From Candidatus Poribacteria bacterium (GTDB lineage Bacteria > Poribacteria > WGA-4E > WGA-3G), in assembly GCA_965197475.1 (NCBI GenBank), contig CBDANF010000003.1, positions 576,001 to 640,000 of the forward strand: a DNA stretch of 64,000 nucleotides, given 5' to 3'. The translations under genes and the position numbers were made by a program. The notes under the pieces are model-generated. The model saw only the letters and a program-made list of their open reading frames with translations. It was not told the origin of the DNA and made no database searches. Position 1 is the first letter of the stretch. Each line of letters starts with the position of its first letter. Shown in pieces: positions 1 to 53,623 of the stretch.

Positions 1-4
1 CCCG

Positions 5-2815: not shown

Positions 2816-2878
2816 CCGTTTAATGCTCGCAAAATATTCTTGTGGGAGGGCTTTCTAAGCCCGATGAAGTTGATTTCT

Positions 2879-2911
2879 CTTGTGGGAGGACTTTCTAAGT
2901 CCTCCCACAAG
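2879..2911. repeat. REP-like palindrome / possible terminator after RND gene
   Basis: CTTGTGGGAGGACT-ttcta-AGTCCTCCCACAAG perfect inverted repeat; half copy at ~2840. Confidence 0.7.
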
Positions 2912-3014
2912 AAAATTGGCACTGGCGTTGATTCGTAAATCCTGGTTCAGACAATCCGAGAAATCTGTGTAATCTGTAAAATCCGTGATTCAGACAAACC
3001 ACACATCCAACCCA

Positions 3015-3136
3015 CAGAGCCATTCAATTGTCGATTTTTTACACGTTTATCCGAAAAGTCGCGATTCGGAGATCGCTCCTGCAGAGGAAAGACCGTTAGC
3101 AGAAAGTAGCAACTACTTGAGAATTGAATGGCTCTG
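3015..3136. mobile_element. MITE (122 bp) with 15-bp TIRs CAGAGCCATTCAATT / AATTGAATGGCTCTG; left end of composite island
   Basis: TIRs at 3015-3029 and 3122-3136; the right ~94 bp recur at ~7487-7578 and ~16397-16488. Confidence 0.8.
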
Positions 3137-3363
3137 TCTATAAAAAGAAAATTGGTAGATCTGTATCTACGAGTAAATTCAGGGAAATGGTGTAAATACC
3201 TAAAATTTTGCGAATTTTTAGAAAAAAGTTGAAATTTCTGTAACCTATCTTGCAATACATAACGTTGAATAAGGTATATATGGATATCATGCACGTGCAA
3301 CACAAATTTGTAGTGAGGAAGTTACACCGTCGTTAACCATATTTTGCGTAAGGGGATTTAACA

Positions 3364-3513
3364 ATGAAAAACCGAGATATGAATACCACAATCCAGAAAG
3401 TGACCACGCTGGATGCCTGCCACCTGAGCAGGATTTGCTCACGCAGCATACATCGGTTGGCGAATTTTAACTATAAGTTAATACCCCCCCCCCCCCCACT
3501 TCACATTCGTTAA
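3364..3513 (+). other. Short leader ORF (49 aa) containing a C14 homopolymer (3484-3497)
   Basis: AAGGGGA RBS, ATG 3364, poly-C read as poly-Pro, stop shortly after the tract. Confidence 0.35.
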
Positions 3514-3714
3514 TTTCAATCAATTTATTGGACAAGGTCTTATTGCAGACGTTAGCAGCTGCGATATCTTCGCGCCCGCACGCGCGCTCCGTCTCACACG
3601 GAGTGTCTCGTCGCGGGCTTTTGTTGTTTGTGGAAATAGACGCGATTTATGCTGAATCGTGTCTGATAATTGTTTTAGTTTTACTTGAAAAATTTTAACG
3701 GAGGAGATATAATT

Positions 3715-4158
3715 GTGAAAAAGAAATTTTTTACAGCAAATGTTGATGTGGCAGCTATAGCTGCATTCGGTGGACTTACCGCTATCTCGTTCTTCGCACT
3801 CTTTTTTGAGGAACACGGAATCCGCCTCAGTATCGTTGCACTCGCTATCTCGCTTTGGGGATTCTTGTCCTTAAAACAGATGGATACGGAACAGGAGACA
3901 CAGCGTGTTGAAAAAACCTCGTCTGTTTTTCACAAACCGCAACATCGGAAAAACAGGCGGAGACTCATCACTGCAGTGGTTCTCATTTTGATTAGCGGGG
4001 TTATTCTGTCCGGTGCTATTAAAATGACACGCGCAACACAGATGGATAAACTTGACTGCACAGAACAACCCCGATCTGACAGTATCATATTGGAAAAACA
4101 GGAAACGCCTTGTCCAAAATCAACCATACTGCCCTGCTCGCTGGACGCAGCGGAATAA
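3715..4158 (+). CDS. Hypothetical membrane protein (about 3 TM segments)
   Basis: GGAGGAG RBS before GTG 3715; hydrophobic stretches. Confidence 0.65.
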   Translation: MKKKFFTANVDVAAIAAFGGLTAISFFALFFEEHGIRLSIVALAISLWGFLSLKQMDTEQETQRVEKTSSVFHKPQHRKNRRRLITAVVLILISGVILSGAIKMTRATQMDKLDCTEQPRSDSIILEKQETPCPKSTILPCSLDAAE

Positions 4159-4193
4159 CAGGGATAAACAATCCTAATTCGGAGGATATTTTG

Positions 4194-5036
4194 ATGAAAC
4201 GCAAACTTTACTGGGGACTCGGTGTCCTCATTATTCTACTGATCGGTGTTAGTGCCGTGTTGGTAATCCGACACGAAATGGCGGTACACAAGCAACTCAA
4301 AGCCAATTTAGATGCAGCGAATAAACTGCTTGAAGCACAGAACAAGCCATCAGAAGTGCCGGCTGAAAAAGGGCATGTTCACGATGATGGCACTTTTCAC
4401 GTAGGCGAACATGGCGATCCGATAGTGGAACAAGACGACCCCACGGGTGAACAAAATGAACCCCTAAAACCACCACCATCACGAGACTTCGAACCCGTCC
4501 AAATACAGATACCAGAAGGTATAACAGACCCCGATGTGTTGGCAGCGTGGGAACGACTTGACTACATCGCCAATAATATTTGGGACTGGGGTGGTGTGCC
4601 ATCGCAAGAGACAGAAGAACTGATCGCACAACTTATGCCACCGCCAGATGGGTTTTCGGGTCCCAGCGGACACAGCGATGCCGAAGAGACCATAAATCTA
4701 CTCGGCAGCTTGGATAGAAACGACCCGCGCTCCGCAGAAGTCATGGTGACTTATTACTGTGAGAATATTATCGGGGGGCTTGGTCCACGAAATGCGATAA
4801 TAGATATAGGACCGCCTGCCGTGCCACTGCTGATACCCTATCTGTTTGAAGATGGAAATGCAGAAGCCGTTGCCGCTTTAGGTGGGATAGTCGTAAAGCA
4901 TCGTAAGGAATTAGGGGGTATTGTAGACCATATCATTATTCCAAAATTGGAAGAATATGCGGCAATAGAAGACCCGCCAGGTAAGATGTATTATCCGAGA
5001 AAGTGGGCGCGAGAAGCCCTTGAACTTTTGAAATAA
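4194..5036 (+). CDS. Membrane-anchored His-motif / HEAT-repeat-like protein, copy 1
   Basis: GGAGG RBS; N-terminal MKRKLYWGLG-TM; GHVHDDGTFHVGEH motif; HEAT-like IGPPAVPLLI...AVAAL...AREAL. Confidence 0.75.
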   Translation: MKRKLYWGLGVLIILLIGVSAVLVIRHEMAVHKQLKANLDAANKLLEAQNKPSEVPAEKGHVHDDGTFHVGEHGDPIVEQDDPTGEQNEPLKPPPSRDFEPVQIQIPEGITDPDVLAAWERLDYIANNIWDWGGVPSQETEELIAQLMPPPDGFSGPSGHSDAEETINLLGSLDRNDPRSAEVMVTYYCENIIGGLGPRNAIIDIGPPAVPLLIPYLFEDGNAEAVAALGGIVVKHRKELGGIVDHIIIPKLEEYAAIEDPPGKMYYPRKWAREALELLK

Positions 5037-5066
5037 CCGAAATCTATATATGAAAGGAGAAATCCG

Positions 5067-6875
5067 ATGAAAGTTCGTTATGTTTTCTACATGCTATTAC
5101 TTGTTATCTGTGTGTTAATTCCGTTTCATTTGAGTTCCACAGTAATATCGTTTCATTCGCAGACACCTTGTATTCGTATCAAATCGTGGTCTGTCGGACA
5201 AAGTTCGGGTTATTATGGTAAAGAGAAACTCGCAATAAACATTGGGTCGTTCATTACGAATTCAGAACAGACGTGTTGTGTGCATGTATCGGTGGGTTAT
5301 TGTGATGACCAACCTTCGCAGACCAACATAATGTATCCGATTACTTCGTTTGGATATGAGTTGTCTATGAGTCATGGGTTCGTAGTAGAAAAGGCGGTTT
5401 ATAGTGTGAGTGGTCCGGATGCTGCGTTGTTTGACCCGGCCACAAGTTTTTCTGTGAGTGCGAAGTTTAAGGGACCCAAGGATGAGGAGGAGCTTGTCTC
5501 ATCGTGTAACGGAAATAATGGTCGCGATAACAAACCGATGTGGGTCAAGGTGAAGTTTATTGGCTACTACGGGACGGATCTCGATAACCAAAAGTCCGTT
5601 TCAGTTTCGGGACAGTGGGTACAAGATACAAAAGACAGGATACGGCAGGAATATGTGGATATGACACCACCCGATAGTAGAGCCGAATTGCCGGTGCCTG
5701 GCAGATCGTCATTTGTTTCCACAATCTCAACCGACAACGGTGTGGATCGATGGAATACGGGGCATTATAGTAGTTTCATGATAGATGATGGATTGAAAGG
5801 GAAAAAGGCAGATTGGCTCGCGGAAGTTAATAAAGAACGCAAAAGTAACGGTTTATCCGCGTTTACGGATGCTGATTTTCAGGTGAACAGTGCGTATCGC
5901 AATCCGTATCATCAGCGTTTTCATGTCGGCAAGGGGGCACTTGCTTCATTTCATAGTCGTCATCCGTTTGGCGATGCGTTAGATGTTCACACCCCCGATG
6001 TAAATGGCAATGGCACAGAAGAGCAAGTCTATAAGAATTATGCTAACAGTGCCGATGGCGTTGCTATGCAGCGAGCCGCCGAGTCTAAGTCTGTTGGTGC
6101 TTTGTGGACAGCTTCTTATCTATACTATAGTACGCACACGCATGCGGATTGGACGCTGCGCGTGAAAGATGGCGGGAGTTGGCCTCCGCCGAATGGCACT
6201 GTCTATTCTCCACCGTGTAACATAGATGGAACAGCATCAAGTGGTCCGTATGTGACGGGGGCAACAACGGGCAATGCAGAAGAAACGAATGAAGGTCAAA
6301 CGGGACAGGATACCGGTGGTAGTGAACAGACCACAGATGCTCCTGCCATCGGCCCCTGTGGACATACCTATTGGCTAGGTTCATCCTCGGACTACGACCA
6401 TAGATCAGAAACTTGGGGGTGTGGACATACGATCTATGTTTGTCAATCCAGTTCCCATTCGCTGCAAGCGAGTTGTTCCGAAACGAATGCGAATGGCGAT
6501 AGTTGTACGGTGACAAGTTTCTATGCGTGTCAGACGCATACACACGAGTATCCTGCTGCGCCGAGTTTTGCGCCCAGTTTATCCGTCGGTTCAAGCAGCT
6601 ATAGTGCGGGGAGTTCTTTGTCTCCGGTTGTCACATCTGATGCGCCTATTTACGGTGCGCATTTGTTTGTGCGTGCGCCGGGGGATACAAGCACCTATGG
6701 CACAAAAATAGGCTGGTTTCCTGGGGGTCGCACGACACAGACATTGACGTTGCCTTACACGTTTGCTGCTAATGCTGCGAGTGGCAGCTATAAGATCACT
6801 GCGCGTGTGTATCCGTGGAATGGTGATGCGTGGGGCGATCCGGATTATTTATCTGACTACGTGTCGGTTGAGTAG
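5067..6875 (+). CDS. Secreted protein with peptidase M15-like (LAS zinc peptidase) domain, Cys/His-rich repeats and C-terminal beta-rich domain, copy 1
   Basis: Signal peptide; VNSAYRNP..H...SRHPFGDALD...HTHAD matches M15A S(G/A)YR..SxHxxGxAxD..HxD; CGH/CQ..H repeats. Confidence 0.75.
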   Translation: MKVRYVFYMLLLVICVLIPFHLSSTVISFHSQTPCIRIKSWSVGQSSGYYGKEKLAINIGSFITNSEQTCCVHVSVGYCDDQPSQTNIMYPITSFGYELSMSHGFVVEKAVYSVSGPDAALFDPATSFSVSAKFKGPKDEEELVSSCNGNNGRDNKPMWVKVKFIGYYGTDLDNQKSVSVSGQWVQDTKDRIRQEYVDMTPPDSRAELPVPGRSSFVSTISTDNGVDRWNTGHYSSFMIDDGLKGKKADWLAEVNKERKSNGLSAFTDADFQVNSAYRNPYHQRFHVGKGALASFHSRHPFGDALDVHTPDVNGNGTEEQVYKNYANSADGVAMQRAAESKSVGALWTASYLYYSTHTHADWTLRVKDGGSWPPPNGTVYSPPCNIDGTASSGPYVTGATTGNAEETNEGQTGQDTGGSEQTTDAPAIGPCGHTYWLGSSSDYDHRSETWGCGHTIYVCQSSSHSLQASCSETNANGDSCTVTSFYACQTHTHEYPAAPSFAPSLSVGSSSYSAGSSLSPVVTSDAPIYGAHLFVRAPGDTSTYGTKIGWFPGGRTTQTLTLPYTFAANAASGSYKITARVYPWNGDAWGDPDYLSDYVSVE

Positions 6876-6913
6876 TTGTCCTTTAGATTAGAAAGGGGCG
6901 TGTCTTGGAACTG

Positions 6914-6950
6914 ACAGGCAGATATTCTTTTGGGTATCTGCCTGTTTTTT
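6914..6950 (+). terminator. Intrinsic terminator (copy 2 at 13846-13882)
   Basis: ACAGGCAGATA-loop-TATCTGCCTGT followed by a T tract. Confidence 0.75.
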
Positions 6951-6965
6951 GTAAAGGAGCACTTA

Positions 6966-7439
6966 ATGAAAGTAAAATCCTTCATAACAGGTCTTATCAT
7001 CCCGTTACTCCTCACTGCTGGTATCATTCTATATCTGCAACATGCACCAAAATTGGCACCCGCAACTGAAATTCCGCATCAAAAAGATGTAATAGCAAAT
7101 GTGGAACAACCGAAGGTAAACGCTGTCAATTCCAACACAACTGCAGAAAACCCTGACGCGTTCTATCAGTTGATTATTGACAACAACATCTTCCGTCCAC
7201 TCGGTTGGCAACCGCCCAGAAAACAGCCGGACTATACCCTTATCGGCACAACAGTTTCACAGAACGCAGCAGATTCAAAGGCGTTTATATTGGAGCGGCG
7301 TTCAAATCGCATGCATATCGTCAAAGTTGGGGACACCCTTGACGATGCGCGTGTGAAAGAGATTCAATCGAAACGTGTCACACTGCATGAAGCAGGAAAA
7401 GACATAATCCTGCATGGCGGTAGGCTGCAGTTTTTCTAA
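6966..7439 (+). CDS. GspC/PilP-like (type II secretion protein C HR-domain) membrane protein, copy 1
   Basis: N-terminal TM, linker, NIF, then YTLIGT...AFI...VKVGDTL.DARVKEI.SKRVTL pattern typical of the T2SS-C HR domain. Confidence 0.65.
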   Translation: MKVKSFITGLIIPLLLTAGIILYLQHAPKLAPATEIPHQKDVIANVEQPKVNAVNSNTTAENPDAFYQLIIDNNIFRPLGWQPPRKQPDYTLIGTTVSQNAADSKAFILERRSNRMHIVKVGDTLDDARVKEIQSKRVTLHEAGKDIILHGGRLQFF

Positions 7440-7664
7440 CATCTTCCTCTTCCCACAAGGTTATTTAGTTTTAGACTTTTTGTCCAGTTTATCCGAAAAG
7501 TCGTGATTCGGAGATCGCTCCTACAGCGGAAAGACCGTTATCAGAAAGTAACAACTACTTGAGAATTGAATGGCTCTGTCCAACCCAGAAAAAACCTTGA
7601 ATGATAGAAAAAAATATGCTATAATACTCTCAAACCTGAAATTTGTAAGAAGAGGGAAAGTCAC

Positions 7665-7877
7665 GTGAATTGCGAAATGAGCGAAACACGCATGCGTATC
7701 CTACAACTTTTGAAGATGCGTTCCAGCATGACGGTCAGTCAACTAATTGAAGCACTCCACATCAGTGACATGGGGGTCAGACAACATCTCACTATCCTTC
7801 AAGAAGAAGGTTTGGTTGAATATCATCAAGAAAAGCATGGACGCATCGAAATAACAGGGATAAACAATCCTAATTAG
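7665..7877 (+). pseudogene. Truncated copy of the HTH regulator at 16575, fused to the cassette leader
   Basis: Near-identical to 16575-16754 up to TGGACGC (7838-7844), then switches to the ATAACAGGGATAAACAATCCTAA leader. Confidence 0.85.
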
Positions 7878-7889
7878 GAGGATATTTTG

Positions 7890-9260
7890 ATGAAACGCAA
7901 ACTTTATTGGGGGTTTGCAGCCCTCATTATCCTGATTATCGGCACTGCAGGTGTGTTGTTCATTCAACACAACCGCGCCGAAATGGTGCTCCTTGAAGCG
8001 TTGTCGGATGCCGATAACAGCGATAGTTCACAACAGCAGCCCGCCCAACGTGGCGTTGGTTCTACTGACTACAAAGCCCCCCCGCTCGGTGAAACAGACG
8101 ATACAGGGTATTGGGAAGGAAACACATGGCATCAGAAACCGGCACCCAAACCGAAGAAAAAAGGGTGGTGGAAGACAGGGGATACAAGAAAATATCTTGA
8201 GATGCTTGCCATTACCGGTAACATCCCAAAAGAATTCAGGCCCGACTCCAAAGCTTTTGCCCGGTGGATCATTGCCGAACACCCCTATTCCCAAGCAGCC
8301 CTTGAAGCGAGATTAGTGCTGGGTGGTTGGGGGACATCATATCTAATGGATGCCCTGAAATACCATCCAACATCACCATTACTACACGCAAAAATAGCAG
8401 CCTCTACTTCCAGTCGTCGTTATCCCGAAAAGGTTGTCGCCTTTGCAAAAAAAAAAGCACTCCGCCTGCTTCCCACGACTACCGAAGATACTTCCTATAG
8501 AGGAATATGGAATTCCCCTGCTGTGCTAAGCCACGAATCTTTAGGTCAGGCATATCAGCGATTGGGCGATTACAAATCTGCGTTAGTTCACCTCAAAGCC
8601 GCACAACGTCTTTACAAAACTGGAATTGGGGACGATGACTTAAACATGGACGGATACGAACTGATGTCTAAGTGGATCGCTGGGATAGAAGCGGGGAAGC
8701 CGCTCATAGGACCGAATCCGAAGCCGCATCCGGAGCCGTCCGCCGACTTTCCTTTATCTACTTCACAACCGTCCGCACCTGTGGCCCCTGTAGATGCCGC
8801 CGAACTCCCGCCTGTGCCGTTTGATTTCCCCGCAAGCCCGTCTGATGATATGTTCCGTGCCCCGAACACGTCCTCTTTGTCTCCTTCTGATCAAGGGATG
8901 CGTGAGCGTGAGGCCGCTAAGCAAGCCCATTCAGCGTTTGCCAAACGGCAGCAGCAAGAGTTTGGTGATTTTCTTCGGTGGATGGCGCGTATAGAACAGG
9001 CGAAGTCGCCTGCGGATTTAGAAGATTTTTTGATGCGTGAGATGGCGAAGCACCTGCAAGGTGGTGCTTCCGAGTTCACGCCGGATCGTTTGATCCATGC
9101 GTTTGAAATGGTCAATCGCCACGGAGACGCAGCGGGGATGGTGCATCTGCAAGCGTTGGATCCCGATATTGCGAAAGCGATGTCGCGTCACCCTCAAAGT
9201 AAACGTGTGCCACCGCGCACCGCGCCTGTGCGTCCGAAAACAGTTCATAACCCGAAATAG
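7890..9260 (+). CDS. Membrane-anchored TPR-containing protein (paralogue 1)
   Basis: MKRKLYWG-TM; TPR-like LGQAYQRLGDYKSALVHLKAA; Pro-rich linker; conserved C-terminal module. Confidence 0.75.
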   Translation: MKRKLYWGFAALIILIIGTAGVLFIQHNRAEMVLLEALSDADNSDSSQQQPAQRGVGSTDYKAPPLGETDDTGYWEGNTWHQKPAPKPKKKGWWKTGDTRKYLEMLAITGNIPKEFRPDSKAFARWIIAEHPYSQAALEARLVLGGWGTSYLMDALKYHPTSPLLHAKIAASTSSRRYPEKVVAFAKKKALRLLPTTTEDTSYRGIWNSPAVLSHESLGQAYQRLGDYKSALVHLKAAQRLYKTGIGDDDLNMDGYELMSKWIAGIEAGKPLIGPNPKPHPEPSADFPLSTSQPSAPVAPVDAAELPPVPFDFPASPSDDMFRAPNTSSLSPSDQGMREREAAKQAHSAFAKRQQQEFGDFLRWMARIEQAKSPADLEDFLMREMAKHLQGGASEFTPDRLIHAFEMVNRHGDAAGMVHLQALDPDIAKAMSRHPQSKRVPPRTAPVRPKTVHNPK

Positions 9261-9274
9261 AAAGGAGATTTCTC

Positions 9275-10632
9275 ATGAGACATAAAATGTATTGGGGGCT
9301 TGGAGCTCTCATAATCCTGATTATCGGCACAGCCGGTGTGTTGTTCATGCGGCACAATCGCGCTGAAATGGCACGCTTTGAAAAAGCGTTAGCAGATGCC
9401 GATAACCGGCTACAAGAAAGCGATAGTTCACCCCAGCAGCCCGCCCAACGTGGCGTTGGCTCTCCAACGTATAAACCGCCCCCGCTGGGTGAAACAGAAG
9501 ATACAGGTCACTGGGACGGCAACGTGTGGCATCAAACCGCACCCAAACCGAAAAAGAAAAAAGTGTTGGGCTTGTGGTCACGCGAGATGACTCTGCGAGA
9601 TTACTACGCTGCGATGCCTCAGGGAAATCACAACAATAGACAGACAAAGTTTATGGAAAGCGTTGTTCGAAAACAACCCTATTCAGAGGCGGGCTTTGAA
9701 GCGATGTACAATTTAGCATCAATTAACTCACGTTACAGCAGCGCAGATTATATTGAGAACCTAAAGGGAGTGCTGAAATACCATCCGGAGTCGCCACGCG
9801 TACTCTCAAAGTTAGCGTGGTATACTTCTCCATCTGATTCAAAGTTCCCACCTGAAGAGTCAATAGCGTATGCGAAAAAGGCACTTCGTCTGCTTCCCAA
9901 TAGTTCGGAGGATAATACATGGTTTAAGCTATGGCAGTCCCCCGCTGTGAACATTCATGGGGCATTAGGCTTTGCGTATCAGCGGGTAGGCGATTACAAA
10001 GCTGCGTTGGTTCACCTCAAAACGATACAAAGTCTGCTGAACATGCCTACAAAGCGACTTTGAAGCATATAGCTGCAATAGAAGCGGGGAAGCCGCTCAT
10101 AAAACCCGATCCGAAGCCGCAGCCGGATGCTGCCACCGTTTCGTCTCTATTCCCTCCAGTGCCCGAGCCGGTGTCAGCCCCTAAAGATGCGTCAGATTTT
10201 CCTCCCGTGCCTTCTGATCATCCGGGTTTTGACCCTAACAATCCTTCTTTCGTTCCGTCCGATAAATCTGTTCGTTCGAAACAAGCGTCGGCGCAAGCGC
10301 GTGCGGACTTTGCGCGTCATCAGCAGCAAGAGTTTGGTGATTTTCTGCGGTGGATGGAACGGATAGAGCAAGCGAAGTCGCCTGCAGATTTAGAAGATTT
10401 TTTGATGCGTGAGATGGCAAAGCAGCTGCAAGGCGGTCAATCCGAGTTCACACCGGACCGGTTGATCCGTGCGTTTGAAACGGTCAATCGTCATGGTGAA
10501 ACCGCAGGGATGTCACAGCTGCAACAGTTGGATCCCGATATTGCGAAAGCGATGTCGCGTCACCCTCAAAGTAAACGTGTGCCACCGCGCACCGCGCCTG
10601 TGCGTCCGAAAACAGTTCATAACCCGAAATAG
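9275..10632 (+). pseudogene. TPR protein paralogue 2, frameshifted near 10035-10050
   Basis: ORF 9275-10063 matches the N-terminal half of paralogue 1; another frame (YKATLKHIAAIEAGKPLI... to 10632) matches the C-terminal half. Confidence 0.8.
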
Positions 10633-10646
10633 AAAGGAGATTTCTC

Positions 10647-11084
10647 ATGAGACATAAAATGTATTGGGGGCTTGGAGCTCTCATAATCCTGATTATCGGC
10701 ACAGCCGGTGTGTTGTTCATGCGGCACAATCGCGCTGAAATGGCACGCTTTGAAAAAGCGTTAGCAGATGCCGATAACCGGCTACAAGAAAGCGATAGTT
10801 CACCCCAGCAGCCCGCCCAACGTGGCGTTGGCTCTCCAACGTATAAACCGCCCCCGCTGGGTGAAACAGAAGATACAGGTCACTGGGACGGCAACGTGTG
10901 GCATCAAACCACACCCAAACCGAAAAAGAAAAAAGTGTTTGGCTTGTGGTCACGCGAGATGACTCTGCGAGATTACCGCGCGGCGATGCCCCATGGAAAT
11001 CACGACAATAGACAGACAAAGTTTATGGAAACACCTTGTCCAAGATCAACCACACCACCTTGCCCGCTGGACGCAGCGGAATAA
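10647..11084 (+). pseudogene. Truncated TPR paralogue 3 fused to the tail of the 3715-4158 gene
   Basis: Near-identical to 9275-9659 up to ...TTTATGGAAA, then continues as ETPCP.ST..PC.LDAAE. Confidence 0.8.
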
Positions 11085-11119
11085 CAGGGATAAACAATCC
11101 TAATTCGGAGGGTATTTTG

Positions 11120-11968
11120 ATGAAACGCAAACTTTACCGGGGACTCGGTGTCCTCATTATACTACTCATCGGTGTTGGTGCCGTGTTGGTGATCCGGCAC
11201 GAAATGGCGATACACAAGCAACTCAAAGCCAATTTAGATGCAGCGAATAAACTGCTTGAAGAACAGAACAAGCCATCAGAAGTGCCGAATGAAAAAGGGC
11301 ATGTTCACGAAGATGGCACTTTTCACGTAGGCGAACATGGCGATCCGATAGTGGAACAAGACGACCCCACGGGTGAACAAGATGAACCCCTAAAACCACC
11401 ACCATCACGAGACTTTGAACCCGTCCAAATACAGATACCAGAAGGTATAACAGACCCCGATGTGTTAGCAGCGTGGGAACGACTTGACTACATCGCCAAT
11501 AATATTTGGGACTGGGGTGGTGTGCCATCGCAAGAGACAGAAGAACTGATCGCACAACTTATGCCACCGCCAGATGGGTTTTCGGGTCCCAGCGGACACA
11601 GCGATGCCGAAGAGACCATAAATCTACTCGGCAGCTTGGATAGAAACGACCCGCGCTCCGCAGAAGTCATGGCGACTTATTTCTGTGAGAATATTATCGG
11701 GGGACGTGGTCCGATATATGCGTTGGCAGAGATAGGACCCCCAGCCGTGCCACTCCTGATAAATTACCTGTTTTCTACTGATGGAAACGTAGGAAGGGCA
11801 GTTGCCGCTTTAGAAGAAATTAGCGTAAAGCATCGTAAGGAATTAGGGGGTATTGTAGACCACATCATCATTCCAAAATTCGAAGAATATGCGGCAATAG
11901 AAGACCCGCCAGGTAAGATGTATTATCCGAGAAAGTGGGCGCGAGAAGCCCTTGAACTTTTGAAATAA
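11120..11968 (+). CDS. Membrane-anchored His-motif / HEAT-repeat-like protein, copy 2
   Basis: Near-identical to 4194-5036 except a divergent patch in the HEAT region. Confidence 0.75.
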   Translation: MKRKLYRGLGVLIILLIGVGAVLVIRHEMAIHKQLKANLDAANKLLEEQNKPSEVPNEKGHVHEDGTFHVGEHGDPIVEQDDPTGEQDEPLKPPPSRDFEPVQIQIPEGITDPDVLAAWERLDYIANNIWDWGGVPSQETEELIAQLMPPPDGFSGPSGHSDAEETINLLGSLDRNDPRSAEVMATYFCENIIGGRGPIYALAEIGPPAVPLLINYLFSTDGNVGRAVAALEEISVKHRKELGGIVDHIIIPKFEEYAAIEDPPGKMYYPRKWAREALELLK

Positions 11969-11998
11969 CCGAAATCTATATATGAAAGGAGAAATCCG

Positions 11999-13807
11999 AT
12001 GAAAGTTCGTTATGTTTTCTACATGCTATTACTTGTTATCTGTGTGTTAATTCCGTTTCATTTGAGTTCCACAGTAATATCGTTTCATTCGCAGACACCT
12101 TGTATTCGTATCAAATCGTGGTCTGTCGGACAAAGTTCGGGTTATTATGGTAAAGAGAAACTCGCAATAAACATTGGGTCGTTCATTACGAATTCAGAAC
12201 AGACGTGTTGTGTGCATGTATCGGTGGGTTATTGTGATGACCAACCTTCGCAGACCAACATAATGTATCCGATTACTTCGTTTGGATATGAGTTGTCTAT
12301 GAGTCATGGGTTCGTAGTAGAAAAGGCGGTTTATAGTGTGAGTGGTCCGGATGCTGCGTTGTTTGACCCGGCCACAAGTTTTTCTGTGAGTGCGAAGTTT
12401 AAGGGACCCAAGGATGAGGAGGAGCTTGTCTCATCGTGTAACGGAAATAATGGTCGCGATAACAAACCGATGTGGGTCAAGGTGAAGTTTATTGGCTACT
12501 ACGGGACGGATCTCGATAACCAAAAGTCCGTTTCAGTTTCGGGACAGTGGGTACAAGATACAAAAGACAGGATACGGCAGGAATATGTGGATATGACACC
12601 ACCCGATAGTAGAGCCGAATTGCCGGTGCCTGGCAGATCGTCATTTGTTTCCACAATCTCAACCGACAACGGTGTGGATCGATGGAATACGGGGCATTAT
12701 AGTAGTTTCATGATAGATGATGGATTGAAAGGGAAAAAGGCAGATTGGCTCGCGGAAGTTAATAAAGAACGCAAAAGTAACGGTTTATCCGCGTTTACGG
12801 ATGCTGATTTTCAGGTGAACAGTGCGTATCGCAATCCGTATCATCAGCGTTTTCATGTCGGCAAGGGGGCACTTGCTTCATTTCATAGTCGTCATCCGTT
12901 TGGCGATGCGTTAGATGTTCACACCCCCGATGTAAATGGCAATGGCACAGAAGAGCAAGTCTATAAGAATTATGCTAACAGTGCCGATGGCGTTGCTATG
13001 GAGAATGCTGCCACAGATAAGTCTGTTGGTGCTTTGTGGACAGCTTCTTATCTATACTATGGTACGCACACGCATGCGGATTGGACGCTGCGCGTGAAAG
13101 ATGGCGGGAGTTGGCCTCCGCCGAATGGCACTGTCTATTCTCCACCGTGTAACATAGATGGAACAGCATCAAGTGGTCCGTATGTGACGGGGGCAACAAC
13201 GGGCAATGCAGAAGAGACGAATGAAGGTCAAACGGGACAGGATACCGGTGGTAATGAACAGACCACAGATGCTCCTGCCATCGGCCCCTGTGGACATACC
13301 TATTGGCTAGGTTCATCCTCGGACTACGACCATAGATCAGAAACTTGGGGGTGTGGACATACGATCTATGTTTGTCAATCCAGTTCCCATTCGCTGCAAG
13401 CGAGTTGTTCCGAAACGAATGCGAATGGCGATAGTTGTACGGTGACAAGTTTCTATGCGTGTCAGACGCATACACACGAGTATCCTGCTGCGCCGAGTTT
13501 TGCGCCCAGTTTATCCGTCGGTTCAAGCAGCTATAGTGCGGGGAGTTCTTTGTCTCCGGTTGTCACATCTGATGCGCCTATTTACGGTGCGCATTTGTTT
13601 GTGCGTGCGCCGGGGGATACAAGCACCTATGGCACAAAAATAGGCTGGTTTCCTGGGGGTCGCACGACACAGACATTGACGTTGCCTTACACGTTTGCTG
13701 CTAATGCTGCGAGTGGCAGCTATAAGATCACTGCGCGTGTGTATCCGTGGAATGGTGATGCGTGGGGCGATCCGGATTATTTATCTGACTACGTGTCGGT
13801 TGAGTAG
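11999..13807 (+). CDS. Secreted peptidase M15-like protein, copy 2
   Basis: 602 aa, identical to copy 1 except QRAAES>ENAATD, S>G and S>N. Confidence 0.75.
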   Translation: MKVRYVFYMLLLVICVLIPFHLSSTVISFHSQTPCIRIKSWSVGQSSGYYGKEKLAINIGSFITNSEQTCCVHVSVGYCDDQPSQTNIMYPITSFGYELSMSHGFVVEKAVYSVSGPDAALFDPATSFSVSAKFKGPKDEEELVSSCNGNNGRDNKPMWVKVKFIGYYGTDLDNQKSVSVSGQWVQDTKDRIRQEYVDMTPPDSRAELPVPGRSSFVSTISTDNGVDRWNTGHYSSFMIDDGLKGKKADWLAEVNKERKSNGLSAFTDADFQVNSAYRNPYHQRFHVGKGALASFHSRHPFGDALDVHTPDVNGNGTEEQVYKNYANSADGVAMENAATDKSVGALWTASYLYYGTHTHADWTLRVKDGGSWPPPNGTVYSPPCNIDGTASSGPYVTGATTGNAEETNEGQTGQDTGGNEQTTDAPAIGPCGHTYWLGSSSDYDHRSETWGCGHTIYVCQSSSHSLQASCSETNANGDSCTVTSFYACQTHTHEYPAAPSFAPSLSVGSSSYSAGSSLSPVVTSDAPIYGAHLFVRAPGDTSTYGTKIGWFPGGRTTQTLTLPYTFAANAASGSYKITARVYPWNGDAWGDPDYLSDYVSVE

Positions 13808-13897
13808 TTGTCCTTTAGATTAGAAAGGGGCGTGTCTTGGAACTGACAGGCAGATATTCTTTTGGGTATCTGCCTGTTTTTTGTAAAGGAGCACTTA

Positions 13898-14371
13898 ATG
13901 AAAGTAAAATCCTTCATAACAGGTCTTATCATCCCGTTACTCCTCACTGCTGGTATCATTCTATATCTGCAACATGCACCAAAATTGGCACCCGCAACTG
14001 AAATTCCGCATCAAAAAGATGTAATAGCAAATGTGGAACAACCGAAGGTAAACGCTGTCAATTCCAACACAACTGCAGAAAACCCTGACGCGTTCTATCA
14101 GTTGATTATTGACAACAACATCTTCCGTCCACTCGGTTGGCAACCGCCCAGAAAACAGCCGGACTATACCCTTATCGGCACAACAGTTTCACAGAACGCA
14201 GCAGATTCAAAGGCGTTTATATTGGAGCGGCGTTCAAATCGCATGCATATCGTCAAAGTTGGGGACACCCTTGACGATGCGCGTGTGAAAGAGATTCAAT
14301 CGAAACGTGTCACACTGCATGAAGCAGGAAAAGACATAATCCTGCATGGCGGTAGGCTGCAGTTTTTCTAA
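13898..14371 (+). CDS. GspC/PilP-like protein, copy 2
   Basis: Protein identical to 6966-7439. Confidence 0.65.
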   Translation: MKVKSFITGLIIPLLLTAGIILYLQHAPKLAPATEIPHQKDVIANVEQPKVNAVNSNTTAENPDAFYQLIIDNNIFRPLGWQPPRKQPDYTLIGTTVSQNAADSKAFILERRSNRMHIVKVGDTLDDARVKEIQSKRVTLHEAGKDIILHGGRLQFF

Positions 14372-14642
14372 CATCTTTCTCTTCCCACAAGGTTATTTAG
14401 TTTCGCAATAAGTAGTTTTGGACTTGCAACAAACATGTAAAAATCGCTACAAACACAGATGTAGACTACATTTCCACTTGTTTTAATTGTGCAACTATGA
14501 TACAATATAGATAAGAAAGTAGGGGGTTGGTAGCCCCCTAAATGAACACAAAAAGCGAGTTGCTTTTTGACGGTTCTAATCTTATCTGGTATTATATCAG
14601 AAATCCGTCAGAAAAAGCAACTCCTATTTCAAGGAGTATCTG

Positions 14643-15527
14643 ATGGATTTATTGAAGGTAATGGAGCGTTTTCCTGACCAAGAAGCATGTATTGAGCATT
14701 TGGAATATATTCGGTGGCGTGGTGAACCAAGATGTCCGCATTGTGATAGTCTAAACGTTGCGGAACGGACAGAGACGGAATTGGGACGCATCGGACGCTG
14801 GCAATGCCATGATTGCACTGCTACTTTCAAGGTGACGTGTGGCACGGTGTTTCACGGGACAAAGATAGCACTTCAGAAGTGGTTTTTGGCGATCTCGTTG
14901 ATTGTGAATGCGAAGAAGTCGTTATCCAGTTACCAGTTGAGTCGTGATTTAGACTTGAATCAGAAAACTGCATGGTTTATAATGACTCGTATCCGTGCTG
15001 AAATGGCAAAGAAAGGTAGCAACGTGCTATTACAAGGCATCATAGAGGCTGATGAAACTTACATCGGGGGTAAACCTCGCAAGCCGAACAAGAAAGCAGA
15101 TGCGGAGCCTGCCAAGCGTGGTCGTGGCACTGATAAAGACGCAATCATCGGGGCTGTCCAACGCGGTGGGAAAGTTGTAGCACAACTTGCAAGGGATTTG
15201 ACAGGACGGACTATTTTAGACTTTATCCGAAGAGCCGTGAAAGTTCAGGATTCGGAGTTGATGACCGATGAATATAATGCTTATCTCGCACTCGGTAGAG
15301 ATATGAAGCATCATATCATCAATCATCAAGAGCAATTTGTTGACGGTGATGTCCACACAAACACGATTGAGGGGTTTTGGTCGCTTCTCAAACGCGCTTG
15401 GTATGGTTCACATCACCACTATTGGACTGAATATACGCCCCTGTATGTCGCAGAGGCGTGCTACAAGTATAACTATAGGAGCATTGACAGCATCTTTGAT
15501 AAGTTTGTTAATGAGAGTATGAGATGA
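14643..15527 (+). CDS. IS1595 (ISXO2-like) transposase
   Basis: Zn ribbon CPHC...CHDC; GIIEADETYIGG, TDE and HTNTIEGFW motifs. Confidence 0.95.
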   Translation: MDLLKVMERFPDQEACIEHLEYIRWRGEPRCPHCDSLNVAERTETELGRIGRWQCHDCTATFKVTCGTVFHGTKIALQKWFLAISLIVNAKKSLSSYQLSRDLDLNQKTAWFIMTRIRAEMAKKGSNVLLQGIIEADETYIGGKPRKPNKKADAEPAKRGRGTDKDAIIGAVQRGGKVVAQLARDLTGRTILDFIRRAVKVQDSELMTDEYNAYLALGRDMKHHIINHQEQFVDGDVHTNTIEGFWSLLKRAWYGSHHHYWTEYTPLYVAEACYKYNYRSIDSIFDKFVNESMR

Positions 15528-15533
15528 GTGAAA

Positions 15534-15905
15534 CTAAAGGTACCCAGGGCGTTTCTTTGCATGATCCGCGGGTTCAGGCGGTGCTTGCAGCACAGATGGC
15601 GGAAGCTCGAATGTCTTTTGATCCGAATTCAAAGCTTCGAGAATATTTTGGAACAATGTATAGCAATCTGACTCGGATTGGAAGATGCCCAAATTGTAGA
15701 GAAAAGTTGATTGGTTCGATCCATGAGCGTCTACATGTTTCAACAGAGTCAGATTGAACAAGTTTGATTCGTTGTTCTTGATGATCACAATTTCATCATA
15801 AATATTAAGATTTACGGCTAATGGACAAAATCCAGTGATTTGTTCAGGTTTTGGAAATATGATTAACATGATAGTTCCTTTGTGAGTTAGAGGGGACAGG
15901 GGCAC
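15534..15905 (-). CDS. IS passenger gene, hypothetical (likely start 15869)
   Basis: ORF inside the IS; AAAGGA RBS-like sequence before MLIIF; overlaps an alternative + strand ORF 15524-15757. Confidence 0.45.
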   Translation of the reverse strand: MPLSPLTHKGTIMLIIFPKPEQITGFCPLAVNLNIYDEIVIIKNNESNLFNLTLLKHVDAHGSNQSTFLYNLGIFQSESDCYTLFQNILEALNSDQKTFELPPSVLQAPPEPADHAKKRPGYL

Positions 15906-15917
15906 CTCGTTGTTGGG

Positions 15918-16154
15918 TTAGTCTGTTTTCTTTCGGTTTACATACCGTTTGATACACCAAGCGGTGAATCTTGCCGACAGAAAAATAATAGGTATGCCGA
16001 CAATTTGGGCTACCAATGCTACTAATGCGTATTCTCGAGCACCGAGAACAGTGACTATAGATCCAATGATAGCGAAAAACAAAAGCCAGTTTTTCAACGT
16101 GTATTTTTGCTTATAGTAAGCAAATACAAGAAGTGGCCACACTAAAAGTACCAT
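15918..16154 (-). CDS. IS passenger gene, small membrane protein
   Basis: 78 aa, mostly hydrophobic, AAGGGA RBS. Confidence 0.55.
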   Translation of the reverse strand: MVLLVWPLLVFAYYKQKYTLKNWLLFFAIIGSIVTVLGAREYALVALVAQIVGIPIIFLSARFTAWCIKRYVNRKKTD

Positions 16155-16574
16155 GATATTCCCTTATGGTAAGGGTTGTACGTGTTTTGTTTATAGGATC
16201 ACGTTGTTTAACCTTAACGTTGTTCCCGATCTCATTCGGTTTGGTAGGGACTGCCTCAAGCGAGACAGATGAGATTCCCTACCAACAACGTTAGGATAGT
16301 ATAACATGTGGGAGAAAAGAGAGTCAAGTGAAAAATTCAATGGCTTGTTGCAAGTCCAAAACTACTTATTGCGTTTAGTTTTAGACTTTTTGTCCAGTTT
16401 ATCCGAAAAGTCGCGATTCGGAGATCGCTCCTACAGCGGAAAGACCGTTATCAGAAAGTAACAACTACTTGAGAATTGAATGGCTCTGTCCAACCCAGAA
16501 AAAACCTTGAATAATAGAAAAAAATATGCTATAATACTCTCAAACCTGAAATTTGTAAGAAGAGGGAAAGTCAC

Positions 16575-17261
16575 GTGAATTGCGAAATGAGCGAAACACG
16601 CATGCGTATCCTACAACTTTTGAAGATGCGTTCCGGTATGACGGTCAGTCAACTAACTGAAGCACTCCACATCAGTGACATGGGGGTCAGACAACATCTC
16701 ACTATCCTTCAAGAAGAAGGTTTGGTTGAATATCATCAAGAAAAGCATGGACGCGGCCGTCCGCATCATCTCTATACTTTAACTGATGAAGCAAACAGCC
16801 TCTTCCCAACAACCTATGCTAATTTTGCTGTCGGTTTGATGCATGAGGTGGCAAAATTCAACGGCCCCGGATTCATCAATAAAATTTTCCGAAGCCGCAT
16901 GAAATCACAACTTCAGACCTATCAACAGCGACTTAACGGAAAAACTTTGCTTGAACGTATCGTAGAACTTGCACATATTCGCGACGAAGAAGGTTACATG
17001 GCTCGATTTGATGAAAATGACACCGACTACGTTTTAATTGAACACAATTGCCCTATTGCGGCAATCGCTCAGGAATATCCACACGTTTGTGAAATTGAAT
17101 TGGCACTCTTCAGACAATCCTTAGGAACGAAGGTGTATCGAGTAGAACATCTCATGCAGGGCAGCCATAGATGTTGCTACCGCGTTCCCAAAGGCGATTG
17201 CATGAAGCCGGAATTAGAATCCTCGTCAGATGAACAGTCAAGCAAACAAATGGATACCTAA
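16575..17261 (+). CDS. SufR-like / ArsR-type HTH transcriptional regulator
   Basis: N-terminal wHTH, GRGRP, C-terminal EHNCPI...CEIE...CCY Cys motif. Confidence 0.85.
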   Translation: MNCEMSETRMRILQLLKMRSGMTVSQLTEALHISDMGVRQHLTILQEEGLVEYHQEKHGRGRPHHLYTLTDEANSLFPTTYANFAVGLMHEVAKFNGPGFINKIFRSRMKSQLQTYQQRLNGKTLLERIVELAHIRDEEGYMARFDENDTDYVLIEHNCPIAAIAQEYPHVCEIELALFRQSLGTKVYRVEHLMQGSHRCCYRVPKGDCMKPELESSSDEQSSKQMDT

Positions 17262-17320
17262 AATAGAGCGGTATCCGCACTCATCTCTCAATTACCTAAC
17301 CCAACCTAAAGGTAATTTCA

Positions 17321-17914
17321 ATGTCTGACGAAACAGGAAGGCGGGACTTTTTCAAGGAAGCCTTGAACCAAATCATGAAACCTGTCGCTGAATTTATAGA
17401 CGACAGGATCGGCGATCAATTTCCTATTGATGAGCCGAATCGTGTCATTTTGCGACCACCAGGTGCGCTCCCCGAACCCGAATTCTTGGAAAAATGCCTT
17501 CGGTGCGGCAACTGCGTTAAAAACTGCCCTGCAGATGCTATACAACCGTTACAAAACCAAGACCCTAACCTTACTAACACACCATATATTGATCCCGATG
17601 AGCAACCCTGCGTGATTTGTGATTCGCTGGCATGCATGTATGTCTGCCCAAGCGGTGCGCTACAAACTCTCTTTGCCGAAGATATCAGAATGGGAATCGC
17701 AATCTTTAACGTTGAGACTTGTCTCCGCACAAAATCTGTCGGCTGTTCCTACTGCGTAGATACCTGTCCTATTGGAAAAGATGCGATCAAGTTCTCATCG
17801 GAAGGAATAGTAGAAGTTCTCGATTCAGGATGTACAGGGTGCGGGGTTTGTCAGTACGCATGTCCAACATCTCCAAAATCGATAGTGGTCAAACCTTTGA
17901 CGCTTTCAACATAG
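17321..17914 (+). CDS. NapF/MauM-type multi-4Fe-4S ferredoxin
   Basis: RRDFF leader, LRPPGA, four CxxCxxCxxxCP-like clusters. Confidence 0.88.
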   Translation: MSDETGRRDFFKEALNQIMKPVAEFIDDRIGDQFPIDEPNRVILRPPGALPEPEFLEKCLRCGNCVKNCPADAIQPLQNQDPNLTNTPYIDPDEQPCVICDSLACMYVCPSGALQTLFAEDIRMGIAIFNVETCLRTKSVGCSYCVDTCPIGKDAIKFSSEGIVEVLDSGCTGCGVCQYACPTSPKSIVVKPLTLST

Positions 17915-17918
17915 CACC

Positions 17919-18458: not shown

Positions 18459-18598
18459 AAAGCAGCTTCATGTTGAAAATAGAAACCATATTTAGAGACT
18501 CTGTACTGGGATTTCTTCAGTCCCGTTGAATGTCAAATGTGCATTTGTCGTTGATTCGCGCCTGGAAGGTTTGTAGAAACGTGACAACTAACCCTCTT

Positions 18599-49371: not shown

Positions 49372-53623
<4,252 letters not shown>

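Follow-up and report, generated by a model that had tools for sequence, protein, structure and literature searches.

A duplicated peptidase-HEAT cassette in a Candidatus Poribacteria genome: a candidate cell-wall effector with a membrane-anchored inhibitor

A duplicated cassette of three co-oriented open reading frames (ORFs), here named ORF1, ORF2 and ORF3, occurs in a stretch of 64 000 nucleotides (nt), hereafter the window, from a metagenome-assembled genome (MAG) of Candidatus Poribacteria. The window spans positions 576001-640000 of contig C3 of this MAG, G000 (5.70 Mb in 3 contigs; estimated completeness 92.7%, estimated contamination 6.97%). ORF2 belongs to a family with a predicted LAS/M15 zinc-peptidase domain and ORF1 to a family of predicted membrane-anchored, HEAT-like solenoids. 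The two copies of the cassette are nearly identical, except for one diverged tract in each of these genes. With a little better than even confidence, the pair is read as a LAS/M15 peptidoglycan peptidase exported by Sec and a periplasmic partner that is its cognate inhibitor or immunity protein; a recent duplication of the pair would have come with a switch in specificity.

According to this proposal, ORF2 would be exported by the Sec pathway and would cut the stem peptides of peptidoglycan. ORF1, held in the inner membrane by one N-terminal helix, would be its cognate inhibitor and effectively an immunity protein, with a periplasmic solenoid that caps the zinc site and so protects the producer from the enzyme within its own periplasm. 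Once released, ORF2 would act on other bacteria. The pair would represent an accessory, fast-diversifying cassette of one Poribacteria genus, the whole of which has recently been duplicated here, the copies being kept nearly identical save for the two tracts. The complex model brings the two tracts opposite one another, so that each copy may embody its own lock-and-key specificity. The remaining parts, ORF3 and the C-terminal modules of ORF2, would be exchangeable add-ons that other cassettes of this genome have as well, possibly for docking to the single secretin.

The repeat unit and its genes are as follows.

4101..7844, plus strand: copy 1 of the unit, from the 3' end of the preceding gene through ORF1a, ORF2a and ORF3a to a downstream stretch of 381 nt
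11027..14403, plus strand: copy 2 of the unit, from self-BLAST and global alignment
16374..16754, plus strand: continuation of copy 2 past an insertion sequence (IS), 98.7% identical to 7464-7844 in self-BLAST
4194..5036, plus strand: ORF1a, 280 amino acids (aa) from ATG
11120..11968, plus strand: ORF1b, 282 aa from ATG
5067..6875, plus strand: ORF2a, 602 aa, predicted to be secreted
11999..13807, plus strand: ORF2b, 602 aa, with 6 aa differences from ORF2a
6966..7439, plus strand: ORF3a, 157 aa from ATG (the ORF list starts it at TTG 6930), identical in both copies
13898..14371, plus strand: ORF3b, identical to ORF3a

Self-BLAST aligns 4101-7471 with 11027-14403 at 97.8% identity over 3381 columns, with 61 mismatches and 11 gap openings. 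The first-pass annotation of the window had described the near-identical copies, and its gene coordinates and quoted peptides are all correct. Its limits for the cassette, from the start of ORF1 to the end of ORF3, hold as well, but the duplicated unit runs longer, through 7844 in copy 1 and 16754 in copy 2, where the continuation takes in the 5' end of a gene for a 228-aa regulator (16575-17261).

Differences between the copies are strongly clustered. Among the 78 differing columns of a global alignment, 22 are scattered in 4107-4541, 41 lie in 4747-4949 and 11 in 6069-6085; the others are singles at 6129, 6284 and 6322, and neither 4950-6068 nor 6323-7445 contains any. Two patches covering 220 of the 3371 positions, with limits set after inspection of the data, hold 52 of the 78 differences, where 5.1 are expected. 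In 100,000 rounds of random placement the patches never received more than 16, and the longest run free of differences reached 664 bases, versus 1124 observed. The patches are located as follows.

4747..4949, plus strand: variable patch of ORF1, copy 1, codons 186-253 in the C-terminal part of the protein
11673..11881, plus strand: variable patch of ORF1, copy 2, from the global alignment
6069..6085, plus strand: variable patch of ORF2, copy 1, with Q335, R336, E339 and S340 between the zinc ligands
13001..13017, plus strand: variable patch of ORF2, copy 2, with E, N, T and D at the same four sites

Codons 186-253 of ORF1 comprise 16 replacement, 11 synonymous and 2 indel codons, while codons 118-185 comprise none. 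Replacements include L197R, R200I, N201Y, I203L, I204A and D205E, with others up to residue 253, and ORF1b is 91% identical to ORF1a overall. The six replacements in ORF2 are Q335E, R336N, E339T, S340D, S355G (at 6129) and S419N; replaced codons in its patch differ at one to three bases (at all three in CGA>AAT and GAG>ACA), with one silent change among them. ORF3 shows neither synonymous nor non-synonymous codon differences, in line with the earlier statement that this GspC-like protein is unchanged. The clustering of changes in two places had also been seen correctly; their description as non-synonymous was too narrow. Because many synonymous changes are present too, the patches look like diverged tracts, old or imported, within a homogenised duplicate, and not like simple point mutations under positive selection. 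They may have arisen by recombination with a diverged allele or may be islands spared by gene conversion; either origin implies that both patches were kept different together. The ORF1 patch of copy 2 resembles variants found in other family members.

Two other sources of the patches were considered and rejected. A diversity-generating retroelement does not fit substitutions of all kinds, which are not limited to template adenines, and gene conversion from a third paralogue finds no donor in the genome. The periplasmic domain of ORF1 and residues 1-400 of ORF2 occur twice each in G000, barring a short degenerate remnant at C3:2395325-2395447. C3:2395325-2396751 is a degenerate third cassette in which an ORF3-like gene and a Cys/His module accompany a short piece of the M15 domain (profile E 3.3e-4); just upstream, the opposite strand contains an ORF of 336 aa (2394145-2395155).

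A repeat of this kind in a MAG raises the question of its authenticity. Two features between and within the copies are relevant.

7887..11084, plus strand: spacer between the copies, with three paralogous genes for transmembrane (TM)-anchored TPR proteins
14404..16373, plus strand: IS of the IS1595 family, 1970 bp, splitting the downstream stretch of copy 2

The first TPR gene of the spacer (7887-9260) is intact, the second is split over two frames (9275-10063 and 9931-10632) and the third (10647-11084) is cut short and joined to the duplicated tail. Over the initial ~60 codons and the DNA preceding them, these genes match the leader of ORF1 at 64-86% DNA identity, and this common leader may have been the recombination site behind the duplication. 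The IS encodes a transposase (14643-15527; Pfam DDE_Tnp_IS1595 1.6e-36 and Zn_ribbon_IS1595 1.4e-9) and ends in perfect terminal inverted repeats of ~29 bp, flanked by an 8-bp target duplication (14396-14403 and 16374-16381); the unbroken target site is present in copy 1. On its minus strand is a passenger ORF of 123 aa (15534-15905). Contigs from public runs that link both ends of the element, omitting ~1925 bases, suggest that short derivatives exist elsewhere.

Conceivably, two strains living side by side each contributed one allele, and assembly placed the two in tandem. The contamination estimate leaves room for this, the repeat is not resolvable by short-read contigs, and a third ORF1 variant is found in another sample of the same study, where a contig over 4527-5024 has 15 other letters. 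The flanks of the copies differ, with a gene for a small membrane protein upstream of copy 1 and the truncated TPR gene upstream of copy 2. The copies also stand 3.2 kb apart with the TPR array between them, and the intact TPR gene occurs once in the window. Because of these different flanks, the IS with its clean target duplication in one copy and the 4.17-Mb length of the contig, the evidence argues for a genuine segmental duplication. In addition, a public run from a different study (X4) yields contigs that match the copy-1-specific stretch 4542-4876 and the copy-2-specific stretch 11796-12178 with 0 other letters each, the latter contig crossing the ORF1-ORF2 junction. X4 is an RNA library, and its contigs over copy-specific stretches are no demonstration of transcription. 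Public-run data consist of short Logan contigs, too short to bridge the repeat, and gaps in their cover are left uninterpreted. Tandem duplicated pairs are found in other genomes too (L020 and L021). An assembly artefact is thus extremely improbable.

The ORF2 protein starts with a signal peptide, which was judged to be of the Sec type by eye from the sequence, not by a predictor. There follow a beta-sandwich (~30-185), a DxxRQEYVD segment leading into the LAS/M15 domain (~186-375), a Cys/His-rich module (~406-498) and a C-terminal beta domain (499-602). Searched as a single sequence, the window protein has no Pfam match at E<=0.1 and none in NCBIfam or the PDB. Its relatives are more telling. 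A large protein collection contains 21, and in the resulting alignment of 22 sequences, window protein included, 13 match Peptidase_M15_3 (PF08291; best 3.7e-7) and 4 match M15_4. Of nine distant relatives from other phyla, eight match M15_3, six above the 23.2-bit cut-off. They come from taxa that include Anaerolineae, Gemmatimonadales, Verrucomicrobiia, Allomuricauda, Elusimicrobiota and Acidobacteria, and they also carry the DxxRQEYVD segment and the motifs discussed below. A full-length ORF2 profile gives only a chance match in the PDB, whereas a domain-only profile from 24 sequences gives 30 matches at E<=10, all to LAS enzymes or Hedgehog proteins. The best is the zinc D-Ala-D-Ala carboxypeptidase 1lbu_A (6.9e-4), followed by Hedgehog N-domains (0.015 and weaker) and the L-Ala-D-Glu peptidase 2vo9 (0.016); ChiX and VanY-like enzymes score more weakly.

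LAS enzymes bind zinc through an H-x6-D motif and a downstream H-x-H. The corresponding motifs of ORF2 are S297-R-H299-P-F-G-D-A-L-D306 and H357-T-H359, which align with SRHMYGHAAD of 1lbu and HVH of Hedgehog. H296, H299 and D306 are invariant in the 22 aligned sequences, H299 and D306 also in the set of 24, and HTHADW is conserved. By alignment with the residues that we take to be the ligands in the reference enzymes, H299, D306 and H359 are the predicted zinc ligands of ORF2. The M15/LAS assignment made in the first-pass annotation thus holds at the level of the family and its profiles, through relatives, PDB profile and motifs, and not for the window protein alone. One relative from an Anaerolineae MAG (L032, 6927-8456; 510 aa) has an N-terminal eCIS_core domain (2.6e-33) and the DxxRQEYVD segment with M15_3 at its C-terminus. 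Because eCIS_core precedes it in this protein, the M15 module would appear to serve elsewhere as a C-terminal cargo or toxin domain.

The Hedgehog matches call to mind another function, in which a sponge matrix or a peptide is the target of the LAS domain, or in which this domain binds zinc without catalysis and serves as a ligand in the manner of Hedgehog; adhesion would then fall to the beta-sandwich, the Cys/His module and the C-terminal module, and ORF1 would mask the protein until release. The lineage is one of sponge symbionts, two small-share RNA runs are labelled sponge metagenome, and ORF2 has several binding-type modules of no known family. Yet the best profile matches are bacterial peptidoglycan peptidases, the SxHxxGxAxD and HxH motifs of catalytic type are intact and conserved, and a host ligand would be expected neither to diversify in a lock-and-key manner nor to leave orphan inhibitor genes, both of which are described below. 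A host-directed or non-peptidoglycan role is therefore very unlikely, and peptidoglycan is the substrate we infer.

In ORF1, an N-terminal TM helix is connected by a low-confidence linker, which contains a His-rich hairpin, to an all-helical domain (114-280). The AlphaFold2 (AF2) model of the protein, built from 63 sequences, is an all-alpha solenoid with a predicted local distance difference test (pLDDT) score of 88. The best Foldseek matches of this model are designed armadillo repeats (E 0.018-0.1, with a probability of 0.98 for E 0.018). Alone, the window protein matches no Pfam family at E<=0.1, no NCBIfam family at E<=1 and nothing in the PDB, and a protein atlas offers leads only (scores 0.87-0.90). 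It has at least 169 relatives, and each one bearing a name is a 'hypothetical protein' of Candidatus Poribacteria. Searched against 1.84 billion representatives, the ORF1 profile gives 6416 matches at E<=0.001 and 75 at E<=1e-30. Long multi-repeat proteins match profile positions ~150-230 many times over, and all five of those scanned are HEAT_2/HEAT_PBS proteins. Of four family members scanned, P0142 (913 aa, with four ORF1-like domains) and P0145 pass the HEAT_2 (PF13646) cut-off; P0177 (628 aa) combines peptidase M16 domains with a subsequent ORF1-like HEAT domain (457-611), and P0181 has no domain match in the Pfam scan. Collectively, profiles and models point to a HEAT/ARM-like solenoid for the family. 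The HEAT label first given to ORF1 is thus borne out by the family profile, by two members and by the AF2 solenoid, but not by a Pfam match of the window protein itself.

The hairpin between the TM helix and the HEAT domain contains a near-invariant H-x-H-x-D-G-x-x-H motif (residues 60-72, with H62, H64, D66 and H70; window ~4368-4406). A similar motif is present in another anchor protein of the genome (C3:337028-338383). The hairpin could be a metal-binding or docking site.

ORF1 and ORF2 are regular neighbours. Across 23 loci with ORF2 relatives (L009-L031), there are 20 in which an ORF1 homologue directly precedes the ORF2 homologue. The exceptions are L023 and L031, where three ORF1-like genes lie downstream instead, and L030, which starts inside ORF2 at a contig end. 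In L020 and L021 one pair follows another in tandem.

The association of the two proteins was modelled in three runs with residues 30-400 of ORF2 and 95-281 of ORF1 from one cognate pair. The ipSAE (interaction prediction score from aligned errors) is 0.87, 0.00 and 0.85, with a median of 0.85, and the best of three controls gives 0.00. In calibration, which is only rough given the custom alignments, 58 of 80 solved complexes attain the ipSAE mark, as do 2 of 110 mismatched pairs. The pLDDT of the partners is at least 77, and the stated between-run agreement at least 0%. In the model the HEAT domain covers the zinc site. The ORF2 interface comprises residues 296-298, 304 and 359-361 beside the zinc ligands, as well as 335, 336, 338, 339, 341 and 344-354; that of ORF1 comprises 163-176, 191-202, 205, 224, 228 and 262-268. 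Contacts of lowest error join ORF2 335/338/339 to ORF1 195-197, and the ORF2 patch also contacts ORF1 268. The modelling supports binding of ORF1 to ORF2 over the active site, where ORF1 would act as an inhibitor.

The first-pass annotation had proposed that the variable patches form a cognate interface and that a model of the cognate complex would tell whether they adjoin. They touch in the model, and further in silico support comes from loci L020 and L017 and from co-variation, with the interface being defined from a single model. In the window copies, three of the five variable ORF2 residues in the modelled range are at the interface (335, 336 and 339; Fisher p=0.011). Locus L020 carries a tandem pair in another genome, from a subfamily ~28% identical to that of the window, in which the ORF1 copies are 80.5% and the ORF2 copies 93.8% identical. 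Mapped to window numbering, interface positions account for 12 of 28 differing versus 29 of 343 unchanged positions in ORF2 (p=5.7e-6) and for 14 of 40 versus 22 of 147 in ORF1 (p=0.006). On the modelled interface, L020 is thus an independent duplicate diverging at the same surface. Across 63 ORF1 sequences, interface columns reach 2.11 bits of variability versus 1.32 elsewhere (p=3.8e-6). The L017 orthologue has copy-1-type patches in both genes, though the proteins are 73% (ORF1) and 58-75% (ORF2) identical overall; copy 2, otherwise matching copy 1, differs from the L017 type in both patches. Finally, interface distances of the two partners correlate across 21 adjacent pairs when non-interface divergence is regressed out (partial r=0.38, reached in 0 of 5000 permutations); L029, which has no such ORF2 part, and L012, which has a frameshift there, were left out.

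The distribution of the family is narrow and patchy. By their titles, the 23 loci belong to Candidatus Poribacteria (21) or 'uncultured bacterium' (2). Among 18 further genomes of this genus, some portion of ORF2 is matched at E<=1e-10 in 13, and its catalytic portion in 11; genomes have 0-3 copies, and the best orthologue is 66% identical. The 12 genomes that represent three further families of the order contain no ORF2 match. Moreover, ORF1 genes can exist without an enzyme. G001, a genome of the same genus (97% complete, 4 contigs), has at least six intact ORF1-family genes (277-286 aa) at four loci, some in arrays of two or three. It contains no ORF2 match and lacks any M15-profile match genome-wide at E<=0.001, and none is found in the 1.5-kb flanks of these genes, whereas 5 of 5 control genomes are positive. 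Locus L014 combines one pair with four extra ORF1 genes. Orphan partner genes in a patchy, fast-evolving, multi-copy family fit a role in conflict better than that of a housekeeping enzyme.

These data bear on the possibility that ORF2 is an autolysin, which remodels the peptidoglycan of its own cell in shaping, division or turnover under the control of ORF1 as a membrane-bound regulator. Both proteins are predicted to be periplasmic, with ORF1 anchored in the membrane and modelled over the active site as an inhibitor-type regulator would be, and the known bacterial members of the fold act on peptidoglycan peptides, judging from the names of the PDB matches. Such a function accords poorly with presence of the catalytic part in 11 of 18 genomes of one genus and in 0 of 12 from sister families, with the variable copy number and with orthologues at most 66% identical. 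The hypervariable ORF1 interface, the ORF1 genes without an enzyme and the occurrence of the domain behind eCIS_core also speak against it, and we consider a regulated autolysin rather unlikely.

ORF3 is the third gene of the cassette. It encodes a TM helix, a linker and a single HR-like domain of the GspC/GspB type, and ends a few residues later. Its match to Pfam T2SSC (PF11356; 9.6e-5, 22.7 bits) stays below the cut-off of 27 bits, and its match to NCBIfam GspC_delta (NF041515; 1.7e-8, positions 95-157 of 311) reaches 34.6 bits versus a cut-off of 150; its profile finds nothing in the PDB at E<=1. Five of 11 paralogues match T2SSC (E<=0.01) and one matches PilP, while 13 of 74 homologues have a precomputed PF11356 match. 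In GspC, the HR domain is followed by a second periplasmic domain, either PDZ or a coiled coil; ORF3 has neither after its HR-like domain. The only secretin of the genome (997 aa, with six Secretin_N stretches) is encoded in an operon on contig C2 (571641-585329) that resembles a type II secretion system (T2SS), together with GspE, GspF, pseudopilins, GspK and a PilM-like protein. None of the scanned proteins of this operon matches T2SSC, and the ORF3 query finds nothing there. The ORF3 gene itself is thus outside the gsp operon and on a different contig.

ORF3 belongs to a large family. Its 12 substantial paralogues are scattered over G000, several of them directly downstream of a pair formed by a TM-anchored TPR protein and a signal-peptide protein, and three of these signal-peptide proteins carry the C-terminal modules of ORF2. 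Outside G000, 38 of 39 genomes of the genus encode 1-13 family members, the widely conserved form being a longer one of 260-290 aa. ORF lists were compiled for 20 loci of the short form in other genomes: 6 show the layout with anchor and secreted protein, 7 are beside a gene for an extracytoplasmic function (ECF) sigma factor (a neighbour confirmed by Pfam in one of the seven), 5 lie between pyridoxal phosphate (PLP)-decarboxylase-like and thioredoxin-like genes and 2 are beside a gene for an 815-aa membrane protein. In L109, L110, L112, L116, L122, L123 and L126, the short ORF3-like genes adjoin and sometimes overlap the ECF sigma-factor gene. This position is typical of an anti-sigma factor; the ORF3-like proteins in question are without a cytoplasmic anti-sigma domain.

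The C-terminal modules of ORF2 are equally mobile. Modules 406-498 and 499-602 recur in ~15 other ORFs of the genome; DNA at 6326-6553 matches a contig-C2 gene with 96.5% identity, and 6556-7443, which encodes the C-terminal domain of ORF2 together with ORF3, matches another C3 cassette over 891 nt with 92.5% identity. The Cys/His module (window 6280-6560; ~80-90 aa) has no Pfam family and is found in many secreted proteins of this genome and of others in the genus, some of which contain it more than once (examples are G000 C2:362104-364239, C3:2832763-2833875, C2:1191559-1193304 and C3:3633461-3634909). That ORF3 always travels with ORF2-type C-terminal modules was rejected as a rule, as hidden Markov model searches find such a neighbour in 1 of the 20 short-form loci.

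With respect to the pair, ORF3 accompanies it in 2 of 23 loci and is not a conserved part of it. The earlier view of ORF3 as a dedicated T2SS adaptor is not supported in that form, given the sub-threshold HR match, the location off the operon, the rarity beside the pair and the ECF sigma-factor neighbours of its family. A link of ORF3 to the secretion of ORF2 is a hypothesis only. It is nevertheless part of another explanation, in which ORF1 is a cargo holder or secretion chaperone that hands ORF2 to the T2SS, ORF3 docks on the secretin, blocking of the active site is incidental and no antagonism is involved. The repetition, at several loci of the genome, of the layout with a TM-anchored TPR gene, a gene for a signal-peptide protein without Pfam family and an ORF3-like gene agrees with such a function, as does the same layout upstream of 6 of the 20 short-form genes. 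So do the leader that ORF1 and the TPR genes have in common at the DNA level, the transfer of the ORF2 C-terminal domain and ORF3 as a block, and the single secretin in an operon without T2SSC match. On the other hand, orphan ORF1 genes without a peptidase and arrays of ORF1 alone are hard to explain for a chaperone, and a hypervariable interface would be less expected in a housekeeping transfer than in conflict. Likewise, ORF3 is seldom found with the pair, its C-terminal-module neighbour is rare and 7 of the 20 short-form loci adjoin ECF sigma-factor genes. A cargo-holder or secretion-chaperone function without antagonism is therefore unlikely.

Elements of both explanations can be combined. 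It is tempting, if speculative and on the doubtful side, to propose a modular export system, in which each cargo is encoded between a gene for an inner-membrane-anchored HEAT or TPR 'holder' and one for a minimal GspB/GspC-type HR-domain coupler to the single secretin of a T2SS in whose operon no GspC is detected, and in which the M15-HEAT pair is a member turned into an interbacterial weapon with switchable specificity. The holder would bind and silence its cargo, and coupling would occur through the exchangeable C-terminal Cys/His and beta modules.

Several observations weigh against the peptidase-inhibitor interpretation favoured here. ORF2 has its own signal peptide, and no route of delivery into the periplasm of a target is evident. 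A toxin gene is usually followed by that for its immunity protein; here the order is reversed, with ORF1 upstream. Analogous cassettes of this genome that pair TM-anchored TPR proteins with unrelated secreted proteins fit a holder or chaperone equally well. Neither window ORF1 nor window ORF2, taken singly, has a Pfam match at E<=0.1. The AF2 model of ORF2 has a mean pLDDT of 54, with ~40-77 over the peptidase domain and confidence restricted to the N-terminal beta-sandwich, and Foldseek searches with this poor model retrieve only generic Ig-like matches to the sandwich, leaving the peptidase domain unmatched. One complex run out of three has an ipSAE of 0.00, and the range modelled for ORF1 omits its conserved His-rich hairpin. 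In the window copies, 5 of 16 variable ORF1 residues are at the interface (197, 200, 201, 205 and 224), which is not significant (p=0.17). In the ORF2 family, interface columns show no excess variability (1.15 versus 1.10 bits), and this interface mixes invariant catalytic residues with a variable helix. The interface tests are moreover uncorrected for solvent exposure, interface residues being surface residues, and their loci are kin, so that significance is overstated.

The remainder of the window contains features of other kinds. Upstream of the cassette lies a resistance-nodulation-division (RND) efflux pump gene (5-2815; ACR_tran 1.2e-240), whose ORF begins before the window. An intergenic repeat of ~100 nt is found at 7477-7580, 16387-16490 and 3035-3138 and is dispersed through the genome in 41 or more copies (75-100% identity), one of which sits after another ORF3-like gene on contig C2; it folds no better than shuffled sequences (z = -1.15) and matches no Rfam family. 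An Rfam search of window positions 1-20000 gives no match. Further along, a cobalamin riboswitch (53397-53633; Rfam RF00174, 93.1 bits) precedes a gene at 53783-55138. Near-perfect intergenic tandem repeats comprise a 68-nt unit present four times at both 27626-27894 and 28467-28737, 841 bp apart, and units of 190 nt (3.6 times), 112 nt (twice) and 200 nt (twice) at 34656-35333, 33916-34141 and 38204-38603, respectively. In addition, 34082-34314 is an inverted copy of 38174-38405.

If the interpretation is true, the cassette represents a new, phylum-restricted effector-inhibitor family of uncultivated sponge symbionts, in which a Sec-dependent LAS peptidase is combined with a membrane-tethered HEAT inhibitor. 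It would point to enzyme-based competition among symbionts in the mesohyl of sponges. The duplication is also a natural experiment, with cassettes 99% identical outside ~70 codons of ORF1 and 6 of ORF2, so that specificity residues would be almost pinpointed. How the T2SS selects its substrates is a long-standing open question. In this context, and on weak evidence, the cassettes raise the question of whether small HR-domain proteins encoded beside cargo genes have a part in type II secretion when no GspC is seen in the T2SS operon.

The ORF1 and ORF2 families are nameless, being called 'hypothetical protein' wherever a source names them, and full-text literature, supplements excepted, yielded no account of this Poribacteria cassette. 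Comparison with known systems is nonetheless instructive. Among LAS/M15 enzymes (1lbu from S. albus, 2vo9 from a phage, ChiX 5opz and VanY-like 4mph/4jid), the likeness resides in the S-x-H-x-x-G-x-A-x-D and H-x-H motifs and in the profile matches. ORF2 differs in the distance of the match, in the preceding DxxRQEYVD segment, in a long variable insert between the ligands and in the embedding of its domain in a 602-aa protein with beta-sandwich, Cys/His and C-terminal beta domains. For ORF1, helical-repeat and membrane-anchored protectors have precedents. Alpha-solenoid (Sel1/TPR-like) immunity proteins encoded in arrays act in the periplasm against phospholipase effectors of type VI secretion systems (T6SS), and immunity to colicin M and pesticin is membrane-anchored. 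ORF1 is like them by description only, as a helical-repeat or membrane-anchored protein with genes in arrays; the class of the effector and its delivery route are different.

As to ORF3, the scaffolding protein GspB binds the N-terminal domain of the secretin through its periplasmic HR domain, and its homologues vary in length and domain make-up (PMC9239104). Measured against that description, the TM-linker-HR layout of ORF3 is nearer to a minimal GspB/OutB than to GspC. ORF3 departs from both GspC and GspB in scoring below cut-offs, in having no C-terminal extension, in being encoded off the gsp operon and in its many paralogues.

The closest parallels are found in peptidoglycan-hydrolase effectors with periplasmic immunity proteins, exemplified by Tae4/Tai4 and Tse3/Tsi3 in T6SS and by X-Tfe/X-Tfi in the type IV secretion system (T4SS) of Xanthomonas (PMC3695027, PMC3792639 and PMC10933484). 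ORF1-ORF2 is unlike them in several respects: ORF2 has its own Sec signal peptide, no marker of a T6SS, T4SS or type VII secretion system (T7SS) lies beside the genes, and the partner gene is upstream and encodes a TM-anchored HEAT-like solenoid. With effector/periplasmic-immunity pairs it has in common adjacent, co-oriented genes, a predicted cell-wall enzyme, a partner predicted to occlude the active site, a diversifying interface and extra partner genes without an enzyme. Protection from self-intoxication on the way out, discussed for the Xanthomonas X-Tfe/X-Tfi pairs (PMC10933484), would be a further likeness.

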